Source of the DNA: a virus
Lineage: Duplodnaviria > Heunggongvirae > Uroviricota > Caudoviricetes
Virus record (IMG/VR): IMGVR_UViG_2651869692_000004
Coordinates: 1 to 46,543 of that record
DNA: 46,543 nucleotides
Reading direction: 5' to 3' (one strand)
Part shown: positions 6,001 through 9,000 of the stretch, piece by piece
Layout of the letters: each line of letters opens with the position of its first letter
Numbering within the stretch: the stretch's first letter is position 1
Program-made: the position numbers

Positions 6001-9000
6001 GTCCTGCTCAAAGTCCATGCCATCAAACTGCTGGTTTTCATTGATGATGCGGGACCAGCCATCAACGCCCACCACCGGAACGATGCCGTTCTGCTTATCA
6101 GGGAAGGCGTAAATTTCTTTCGTCCACGGATTAAGGCCGTACTGGTTGGCGACGATCAACAATGCGATGAACTGCGCATCGCTGGCATCACCTTTAAATG
6201 CCGTCTGGCGAAGAGTGGTGATCAGTTCCTGTGGGTCGACAGAATCCATGCCGACACGTTCAGCCAGCTTCCCTGCCAGCGTTGCGAGTGCTGTACTCAT
6301 CCGTTTTATACCTCTGAATCAATATCAACCTGGTGGTGAGCAATGGTTTCAACCATGTACCGGATGTGTTCTGCCATGCGCTCCTGAAACTCAACATCGT
6401 CATCAAACGCACGGGTAATGGCTTTTTTGCTGGCCCCGTGGCGTTGCAAATGATCGATGCATAGCGATTCAAACAGGTGCTGGGGCAGGCCTTTTTCCAT
6501 GTCGTCTGCCAGTTCTGCCTCTTTCTCTTCACGGGCGATCTGCTGGTAGTGACGCGCCCAGCTCTGAGCCTCAAGACGATCCTGAATGTAATAAGCGTTC
6601 ATGGCTGACCTCCTGAAAATGGCTGTGAAAATATCGCCCGCGAAATGCCAGGCTGATTAGGAAAACAGGAAAGGGGATTAGTGATTCAGGCCGTTACCGC
6701 GTCCGTCGAGAAAAACTTCCACGAGCAAATCACGGGTATAAGTGCGCTCGATGCCGCGATGCAGATAAAGCCGTCCGCGTAAATTAGCTGATGCAGTCCA
6801 GGTACCATCTTTGTGTTTGACCAGCATTCCTGGCATGACCGCACCGCGATTAACGGTCTGCGTTCCGTAATGTTGATGAACCATAAAAACTCCTGCCCGT
6901 AAGCTGGGCTGCTGAACAAATAAGGGGTTGCGCAGTATCTGGCGGTGGATGGCCGCCGGTTGTCATAACTAAGTCGCCTCGTTGAAGCAACTGAGGTATG
7001 AAGTGTTGAGTTGATTTCAGCTGGTCACACCGACGTTCACGCGTCCGTTTCACCCCTCGCACTCCCCGGAGCCTGCTGAAATTCAAGCTGCGGATCTAAG
7101 CGGTCATCGCAACGGTGAATCAGGTGGTTGCCGTATCGTTGTGTTGTTGCGACATGGTGATAATAGCTATTGCTATTGGCGATATCAATACTTATTGCTA
7201 TTGTTAGATGTGTTTTGCTATTAAATGTTTGATAGCAAAAAGAATTAATTTTGTGACTTGAATCGCATAGCGATAACTGAAGCGAGGTCGTGGTGGTTTT
7301 TTGAACGGTTTGTGTGATGAGGGGAGGCAAAAGAAAACCCGGCACGGTGGCCGGGTATCTTTATTCGAATGGAAGATCTATTTGCCTTTGAGGATTCAAC
7401 TGTTTTTTTACATGCTCAATTTCGAATATGGTTTTTATGGCATCTCCGATCATATATTGAGTTACTTTTAAATCTACAAGTAACATATCACCTTTAGAAA
7501 AATTTAAGGTGTTGTTATCAATATCGCTGATGAATTTCTGGTCTTTTATTTCAGCCAAAAAGCTACTGGCACCATCAGAAAACCGCCACCGGCTTCCTTC
7601 ATTGAAGGAAATATTTTTAATTTGAAGGGCTTTCTCTACTGTGTACTCTGAAATTATTGATTCTGCTGGTAGATTGACTTTGAAATAATGTGCTTCTTGC
7701 TTGTTGATCGTCATGAATGTCAAACCATCATCGACAGTAGAGGCAAAGCTGTCAATGCCTTCCTGCTCTAATGGCTTACTTATAACTTCTTGTAATGAAG
7801 AGCGAAGTTTAATATTTTTATAAAGTTCAATAACGTTACTGTCGTAGATCTCGCTTTCGTCATCAACAAAGACTTCGATGTTGCTATCAGGCAAATTGTG
7901 TAATTTTTTTATTTTCCTTGGACCTATCCATTTTATCAGTTGAATTAGGCCTTTGCATATTTTTTCTTTAGAACCAGGACAGAGTCCAATAAAAGCAATC
8001 AAATTCGCAGCGGCTGTTGCTGAATCGCCGGATAAAAAATCAACAGCCTGTTTGAACCAAGATGTAGATGAGGCAACCAGATCTATTCCAAATGAGCCAG
8101 CTTTAAATGATGCATTGACTTTTACAGAAACAACAGTCTTGTTTCCGTAGAGAGTTTTACCGGCTTCCTCTAATGCATCTGATAGTGATAGAAGGGCAGG
8201 AGCAAGGTCTCGCACGTTCATTTCATGCGTTTCCAGTGCCGGACCGTCGTATACTATCCTGAACTTCATATCATTGGTTTCCGAATTGTTGCCCGCATCC
8301 ATTATGGCATTCACCTGATCACATATACAGTTAATTTACGATATTGTCTTAAATCTTAAAACTTCTATTGTATGGCTACCCATGCTTCCTATACGTCTGC
8401 GGCATGCTCCCAATAACCTTACCGAAGATGAACACCCGGTTCATCTCGTCTTTCTCGATCGGGTCCCAAGGTGAGTAGCTCTTGTTATCAGAGATAACCA
8501 GCAGCTTATCCTTCATCATTTGCAGACGCTTTACATGGGCTGTGTCGTCGTACAGAAACGCATAGATACCATCACCGTCGAAAGATTTAACCGTGATATC
8601 AACGAACAGCAGATCACCTGGTTCGATCGTTCCTGACATGCTGTCACCACGCACGTTAATGATGCGGATATTTTCCGCCTTCCTGCCATCGAACATGTGA
8701 CGAGCATCGTCAAACGAGTACTCAACCGAGCGTAGAACTTCTACAAACTCACGATTGATGACACCCGGCCCGGCACTGACTTCTATATCAAGAACGTCAA
8801 TCTTGAAGTATTTGGAATGGTTGACAGCAGGCTTCCCTGATTGTTGACCGTCATTTCTCATCGGGCCTATGCCTGATGAGAGCCACTCAGTTCGAACACC
8901 CAATGCATTAGCTATTTCAACAATTTTTGTTGAGCCGCGCGCGTTGCCGCTTGTCAGTCTCCAGATTGTGGGTTGAGCTACGCCAGACGCCTTTGCAAGA

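Follow-up and report, generated by a model that had tools for sequence, protein, structure and literature searches.

Between the repressor gene cI and the left operator (OL) of a lambdoid prophage lies a single gene, probably of 313 codons, that is the subject of this study. The stretch of DNA analysed, hereafter the window, is the whole of the 46,543-nucleotide (nt) IMG/VR virus record IMGVR_UViG_2651869692_000004, assigned to the Caudoviricetes; it is a complete lambdoid prophage inserted beside icd, and near-identical copies of the gene region adjoin icd in Escherichia coli chromosomes. The gene occupies the slot that lambda uses for rexAB, a placement put forward in a first-pass annotation of this DNA and borne out here by the location of cI and of the operators at OL and at the right operator (OR). 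Here we report that the open reading frame (ORF) is a real gene under strong purifying selection, not a chance ORF, and that the slot which holds it is a true swap site. From its position and associations we argue that the gene is most likely a single-gene, non-enzymatic anti-phage determinant of the lysogen, a reading to which we give a probability of roughly 55%.

The maximal ORF spans 7361..8314 on the minus strand and counts 317 amino acids from its first GTG (8314), as first annotated, while the likely start is the ATG at 8302 (Table 1). An AGGTGA Shine-Dalgarno sequence stands 8 nt 5' of this ATG and is overlapped by the upstream GTG, and the resulting length of 313 amino acids is also that of RefSeq WP_000338655.1 and of the cluster representative P0001. 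The cI ORF, on the same strand, ends 61 nt before the GTG and 73 nt before the ATG. Promoter and terminator scans found neither a terminator nor a consensus promoter between the two genes, and the simplest reading is thus that the repressor promoter drives both. RefSeq lists the homologue of the repressor as a 229-residue S24 family peptidase. The -10 element of a pRM-like promoter stops 7 nt ahead of the likely cI ATG, and from this predicted transcription start the cI mRNA would have almost no leader, like that of lambda. Five copies of the octamer AATAGCAA are present in the window against 1.4 expected by chance, and all of them fall into two clusters, at 7170-7222 (OL) and 9113-9145 (OR). 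Downstream of the gene, the hairpin and T-tract seen just before OL in the first reading are present, with a 7-bp stem of which 6 pairs are G-C (7356..7337), followed by TTTTCTTTTG and with a predicted RNA folding energy of -16.6 kcal/mol (z = -3.0 against shuffles).

Exchange of the gene as a cassette is evident from comparison with the deposited phages PhiR30_1, PhiR47_2 and 4A7, whose flanks are 90-98% identical to the window. Homology to all three breaks at the cI stop (8376/8377) and restarts at the stop of the ORF (7361-7368). Since these phages carry different cargo yet share the sequence from that point on, both the terminator and OL are common backbone, serving whatever cargo is present, and the terminator is thus not the gene's own, as had been supposed. 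The alternative cargoes of these sibling phages lie on the same strand, beginning 68-129 nt past cI. Two of these fillings, those of PhiR30_1 and PhiR47_2, were scanned with PADLOC: the first consists of the candidates PDC-M63A and PDC-M63B, and the second of the candidates PDC-M11A and PDC-M11B, annotated as GevT toxin and GevA antitoxin, for which a literature search found no paper on GevAT. The slot of 4A7 holds a similarly arranged pair, a hypothetical protein and an ASCH-domain protein, with GevA corresponding to the latter.

The same pattern extends to bacterial chromosomes. Of 5426 complete E. coli genomes, 2236 match the sequences of the flanking backbone and 34 carry the cargo gene. 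In a spread sample of 60 records (hits H50-H109) from the backbone-matching genomes, an apparently empty slot was common, and the other fillings included ASCH-domain pairs, DUF6932 with a hypothetical protein, two or three hypothetical proteins, DUF6414 with an RGS-domain protein, a PP2C phosphatase with a Ser/Thr kinase, and a SEN1984/BamE-like lipoprotein; in total this sample holds at least eight different fillings in addition to the apparently empty state. One E. coli prophage carries the present cargo behind a cI whose N-terminal domain differs, and has another cro. The cI-N region is known as a mosaic hotspot, carrying rexAB in lambda and bstA in BTP1, the latter highly expressed in lysogens (PMC8585504). 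The cargo gene has a G+C content of 0.377; the values for the window, the left flank and cI are 0.506, 0.511 and 0.473, respectively. Its composition and exchange support the early view of an AT-rich, horizontally acquired cargo gene ('moron'), here in a hypervariable slot between repressor and OL.

Against alleles of 91-93% amino-acid identity (83-88% nucleotide identity) the ratio of nonsynonymous to synonymous substitution rates (dN/dS) is 0.03-0.05. The identical protein occurs on at least 1000 contigs of the collection, always under the product name 'hypothetical protein'. A profile built from 83 relatives retrieved 5291 cluster representatives (50% identity) at E<=1e-3 and 1763 at E<=1e-30, and the top 150 of the 5291 are all about 300 amino acids long, with one matched stretch and no domain fusion. 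Made up of thousands of clusters at 50% identity, the family extends from Enterobacteria to candidate phyla radiation (CPR) bacteria and Gram-positive phages.

Table 1. Features of the window and of related loci discussed in the text (coordinates are window positions unless a locus handle is given).
Feature	Location	Strand	Remarks
Complete lambdoid prophage	integrase ORF 1..1074 through to tail genes		the window
OL/pL	7160..7222	-	promoter-like site 7188..7160 with three overlapping AATAGCAA half-sites
Intrinsic terminator, predicted to end the cI-cargo transcript	7327..7356	-	backbone sequence, common to phages with other cargo
Cargo gene (LAPAL-motif / PDC-S42 / PHROG 3243)	7361..8302	-	942 nt, 313 amino acids from likely ATG
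Exchangeable cassette	7362..8375	-	73-nt leader with Shine-Dalgarno plus cargo gene; blastn against PhiR30_1, PhiR47_2 and 4A7
Residues 215-302	7397..7660	-	confidently modelled five-stranded beta barrel, OB-fold similarity; conserved NKWRFSDG and KGD motifs
Residues 131-207	7682..7912	-	alpha+beta domain, pLDDT ~95; weak ferredoxin-like/S6-like fold matches only
Residues 92-126	7925..8029	-	Gly/Ala-rich hydrophobic helices, then basic amphipathic stretch GLIQLIKWIGPRKIKK; low model confidence
Residues 12-80	8063..8269	-	strand, long helix, beta hairpin; most conserved part; moderate model confidence
cI-type repressor (HTH_3 + Peptidase_S24)	8376..9068	-	likely ATG 9068; mechanical ORF reaches TTG at 9104
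pRM-like promoter TTGACC-17-TAAATT	9076..9104	-	promoter scan
OR	9113..9145	.	two AATAGCAA operator half-sites between cI and cro
Sibling two-gene cassettes in the cI-OL slot	L005 1867-3221; L006 1864-3292; L007 1859-3275
Mu head-operon homologues	L078 3959-4960; L096 3992-4894		G+C 3-14 points under flanks

The protein is not undescribed, as had first been thought, since three collections already hold its family. PADLOC model PDC-S42 (PDLC05015) matches it over its full length (E=3.4e-86, 287.5 bits, residues 15-316 against positions 3-300 of a 302-position profile), phrog_3243 of PHROGs (function unknown) matches at E=1e-116, and NCBIfam NF053583 (LAPAL_fam) scores 270.4 bits against a cut-off of 60. 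The product name of NF053583 is 'LAPAL motif-containing putative phage structural protein', the motif being RDLAPALL at residues 31-38, of which L33 and P35 are invariant. None of the three entries comes with a tested function. PDC systems are a set of 145 untested candidates whose genes were found inside BREX, DISARM and type I restriction-modification (RM) loci (bioRxiv 10.1101/2024.01.29.577857, Payne et al.). Like the PDC-S42 model, which it matches end to end, the window gene is a single gene with no obligatory partner, and its relatives have heterogeneous neighbours in 63 viral and 77 genomic contexts, with no conserved partner gene in any context examined. While the PDC-S42 model is a prediction from embedded genes, linkage to repressors in prophages is context added by the present analysis.

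This linkage recurs well beyond the window. A 60%-identical relative lies directly behind a 155-residue CI-type repressor and ahead of kilR in a Rac-like E. coli prophage, a 56%-identical relative in Salmonella lies behind a 130-residue helix-turn-helix repressor, another follows an S24 repressor plus a small gene, and one in a Burkholderia prophage comes after a gene divergent from the early genes. An upstream ORF could be called at 78 IMG/VR viral loci and shares the strand of the homologue at 72 of them; of 63 distinct proteins encoded upstream at viral loci, 32 carry HTH_3, 24 Peptidase_S24 and 9 Phage_CI_repr. In Lactobacillus phage A2, Listeria phage 188 and Bifidobacterium phage PMBT6 the homologue adjoins the integrase in the lysogeny module. 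The G+C content of the homologue is under that of both flanks in 11 of 13 other contexts, the Mu head-operon cases described below included (0.54 versus 0.68), and such a difference is the signature of an inserted cargo gene. A few chromosomal relatives stand near type III RM, DRT or MADS genes, and a relative in Acinetobacter adjoins a HIRAN protein, two genes from a protein with a BstA_C domain.

An AlphaFold2 model built with 83 sequences (mean predicted local distance difference test, pLDDT, 83.9) divides the protein into four parts (Table 1). The N-terminal part carries the motifs YDGPAL, DLAPAL and SFKxGSFG, and the invariant residues of the 83-relative alignment are densest here (Y18, D19, G20, P21, L33, A34, P35, S65, F66, G69 and F71). 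Residues 81-126 are modelled as helices with low confidence; the Gly/Ala-rich segment within them is the only basic segment of the protein (isoelectric point, pI, 9.5), its G106 is nearly invariant, and in several relatives it reaches Kyte-Doolittle values of 1.8-2.07 over 19 residues. The five-stranded barrel of the predicted C-terminal OB-fold domain has K238, W239 and F233 conserved. Weak recurrent matches are all that a comparison of the 83 relatives with Pfam (E<=1) returned: DUF7946 in 15 of 83, mapping to residues 12-80, and EACC1 (PF19953) in 5 of 83, all sub-threshold, with a best E of 1.2e-4 and 13 bits for P0092 against a gathering cut-off of 23.6. The EACC1 matches map to residues 108-165, those of P0092 aligning to profile positions 46-104, and the window protein itself has no EACC1 match.

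The first-pass annotation saw no catalytic motif by eye, and none emerged on closer inspection. A Pfam scan of the protein (E<=10) gave only a chance-level DUF2004 match, a PDB sequence profile search gave no match at E<=10, and the invariant columns of the 83-relative alignment contain no His, Cys or Glu and no nuclease, nucleoside triphosphatase or hydrolase motif, so the protein is probably non-enzymatic. A fold search of the BFVD viral structures returned only uncharacterised phage proteins and one DUF6575 protein, and no fold search matched any virion protein. No signal peptide and no clear transmembrane helix were found in the protein; superinfection exclusion, part of the original suggestion, is therefore not favoured in its classical form at the membrane, and the reading as a classical transmembrane protein is rejected for the window protein, whose hydrophobic run is only about 14 residues.

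Taken together, position and association make a case for anti-phage defence that is strong of its kind and indirect, and at about 55% it is the reading that we prefer. From the layout of the locus, pRM would drive the gene along with cI in the lysogen, and pRE would do so during establishment; the transcript would end at the backbone terminator ahead of OL. The gene product, of about 35 kDa, would be a non-enzymatic protein of the cytoplasm that protects the lysogen from other phages, a member of the PADLOC candidate family PDC-S42 acting on its own in defence or abortive infection. The C-terminal OB-fold barrel and the preceding alpha+beta domain may form a ligand-binding or autoinhibitory part, the ligand being an infection product, whether a phage protein or nucleic acid in single-stranded form. 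The N-terminal third, which is highly conserved and comprises the hydrophobic Gly-rich helices and the amphipathic basic stretch, might then be the output part, working by self-association and possibly by membrane damage. This division of labour, in which the two C-terminal domains would sense or lock and the Gly-rich module at the N-terminus would deliver the output, is offered very tentatively.

A number of observations weigh against this reading. Some relatives sit elsewhere: in the early region of Mu-like phages the homologue comes after gam or ahead of mor, and in other Mu-like phages it is found within the head operon, flanked by Mu G (virion morphogenesis) and the gene for the Mu I protease/scaffold, placements that would mean production in lytic growth, not lysogeny. 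In species-representative genomes, where 287 matches reach CPR bacteria, Melainabacteria and Nitrospinota, most neighbours are unrelated ordinary genes, and few of the 56 largest genomic neighbours match type III restriction endonuclease, DRT, MADS or GajB-like models, a count that comes without a background rate. A literature search found no paper or experiment on any family member, PDC candidates, PDC-S42 included, are untested by definition, and expression in the lysogen is read from the layout only. With respect to mechanism, the OB domain is acidic (pI ~5), which disfavours simple binding of single-stranded DNA, the hydrophobic run of the window protein is too short for a classical transmembrane helix, and the very strong purifying selection is unlike the diversifying pattern of many phage sensors. 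Lastly, EACC1, the nearest lead for the N-terminal part, was compared directly by taking the K. racemifer EACC1 sequence from the supplement of a preprint (cited below), building a small alignment and running hhalign against the family alignment; the probability of 0.1-0.2% is not significant, so homology to EACC1 is not claimed and the similarity is kept as a lead.

Some of these observations invite other explanations. The gene could be a prophage fitness or lysogeny factor unrelated to exclusion, which would be made with the repressor and would modulate the cI/cro switch, induction or host physiology, its OB fold binding DNA or a host protein. The tight, repeated linkage to repressor genes of several families is in keeping with such a role, as are an OB-fold domain with no enzymatic motif and a purifying selection strong enough for a housekeeping-like interaction, and the evidence for defence is itself indirect. 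A part in the switch is ruled out: the gene is absent from most phages that share the repressor and operators, and so cannot belong to it. The family is, moreover, found beside integrases, in Mu early and head regions and among ordinary chromosomal genes, unlike a regulator of one circuit, and both of the alternative fillings scanned are defence candidates. We regard a fitness factor as possible and, on balance, unlikely.

The homologues that directly follow Mu gam or lie elsewhere in the early operon suggest instead a counter-defence or host-takeover protein serving the phage's own lytic growth, for example an OB-fold shield of phage DNA or single-stranded intermediates, or a decoy for an immune sensor. 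Its predicted fold resembles OB domains of the SSB/RPA type, and the lambdoid gene would presumably also be transcribed from pRE early after infection. Its position behind cI and up to the terminator, however, would give expression mainly in the lysogen, at a time without phage replication. The OB domain is acidic, and the match to a defence-candidate model, like the defence candidates that fill the slot in two sibling phages, speaks against such a role. This proposal strikes us as doubtful.

A role in virion structure or morphogenesis, as the NCBIfam name suggests, is very improbable. The first-pass annotation had named a confident hit to a known non-defence family as grounds for rejecting its proposal, and the confident equivalog match to NF053583 formally touches that point, although context argues against the name. 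The homologues between Mu G and Mu I, the other point in favour of a structural role, probably explain how the name arose, and it is the low G+C content of those very genes (Table 1) that marks them as inserted cargo. In the window the gene stands in the immunity region, on the opposite strand to the late genes and between cI and the terminator; complete phages of the same backbone (PhiR30_1, PhiR47_2 and 4A7) lack it, many sampled genomes have an apparently empty slot, and the fold searches matched it to no virion protein. The least probable of the alternatives is a selfish addiction toxin that stabilises the prophage and has no anti-phage role, for although one alternative filling is annotated as the toxin-antitoxin pair GevT/GevA and the hydrophobic Gly-rich segment could harm membranes, the gene is single, with no conserved partner in any context, the exact protein occurs on its 1000 or more contigs without an antitoxin-like neighbour, and no toxin family matched the protein or its 83 relatives in Pfam.

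Several other features of the prophage and its relatives deserve mention. A 102-residue ORF at 7037..7345, which overlaps OL, was considered and rejected as a gene; it is unannotated in the RefSeq prophage and covers the operators and promoter. No N-like antiterminator gene is present and 6885-7160 is gene-free. The roughly 480 nt from the cargo gene to kil (6678-6884), which include OL/pL and a leader of about 275 nt, hold no conserved ORF and none annotated in RefSeq, and an Rfam search of 6500-9500 returned no known RNA family, none accounting for the gene-free stretch between OL and kil. In the position of cro stands a YdaS-family gene (77 amino acids, 9173-9406, plus strand), and in that of cII a YdaT-family gene (181 amino acids, 9431-9976, plus strand), as in Rac-like prophages. 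A second cargo islet follows replication gene P, antisense to the early-right operon, with two genes on the minus strand (14247-15749 and 12340-13887). One of its products is a 500-residue DUF4041 + T5orf172 protein that matches PD-Lambda-1 (E=5e-198), a system now called SNIPE, in which a nuclease bound to the membrane cleaves phage DNA as it is injected. The second product, of 515 residues, has an HD domain and a weak match to a dGTPase model. In a related icd-adjacent prophage with the same cargo (L004 16730-20237), genes for an emrE-type SMR efflux protein, a recombinase-family protein and an alpha/beta hydrolase replace the PD-Lambda-1 islet. Finally, 19670-21520 on the plus strand encodes a 616-residue protein with DUF1737, a SASA sialate O-acetylesterase domain and DUF6645.

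The finding will not surprise a specialist, to whom both the slot and the candidate family are known, yet it concerns a gene family that is both very widespread and open to experiment. Exchange behind the lambdoid repressor is brisk: in the E. coli phages and genomes examined, the slot is apparently empty, holds the present gene, or holds other cargo that includes at least two other untested PADLOC candidates, and phages that share a backbone and differ in cargo form a natural isogenic test set. If lysogens prove to be protected, a widespread, non-enzymatic mechanism of single-protein immunity would be added to those known; if not, the result would correct an entry in a defence database as well as a product name that NCBI now gives in genome annotations.

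Likeness to SSB, RPA and PriB is confined to the level of the OB fold, a very common fold, with no membership of their sequence families and with an acidic domain in the window protein, and a modelled likeness of this kind does not establish nucleic-acid binding. BstA of Salmonella prophage BTP1, which has demonstrated abortive-infection activity (PMC8585504), is arranged in a like manner: it too is a single gene of about 300 codons right behind a prophage repressor, with a Rho-independent terminator at its end, and it too is a non-enzymatic protein found behind repressors of diverse prophages. Pfam searches of the window protein and its 83 relatives found no KilA-N or BstA_C domain, and while the activity of BstA is demonstrated, the function of the PDC-S42 family is that of a candidate.

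EACC1 is a small non-enzymatic effector with a hydrophobic helix bearing a Gly patch (eLife PMC7159879), which is reported to form membrane pores once a caspase removes an N-terminal fragment (preprint, bioRxiv 10.1101/2025.11.14.688446). The window protein is alike in having a hydrophobic helix rich in Gly and small residues, with alpha+beta flanks, followed by W, basic residues and a beta hairpin; it is three times longer, with the alpha+beta and OB domains in addition. EACC1 genes pair with a caspase-type protease, whereas the window gene has as neighbours cI, a self-cleaving repressor of the S24 kind, and OL, and no caspase family is found among the upstream neighbours in viral and genomic contexts.

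Abortive infection was first defined at the slot behind a lambdoid repressor, with rexAB. The gene described here shares with lambda RexAB this same slot, from cI to OL/pL, the strand of cI, presumably the same promoter, and the status of dispensable cargo. RexAB is a pair of sensor and membrane channel, whereas the window has one gene without clear transmembrane helices, and no homology to RexA or RexB appeared in Pfam scans of the protein (E<=10) or of its 83 relatives. Speculatively, and with little confidence, LAPAL/PDC-S42 proteins might form a new class of self-contained, non-enzymatic abortive-infection proteins, in which an OB sensor would restrain an EACC1-like Gly-rich module that, once released by a phage replication intermediate or a phage protein, would oligomerise and permeabilise the membrane. 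A class of this kind, equally conjectural, would be a one-protein equivalent of RexA plus RexB that works without an activating protease.

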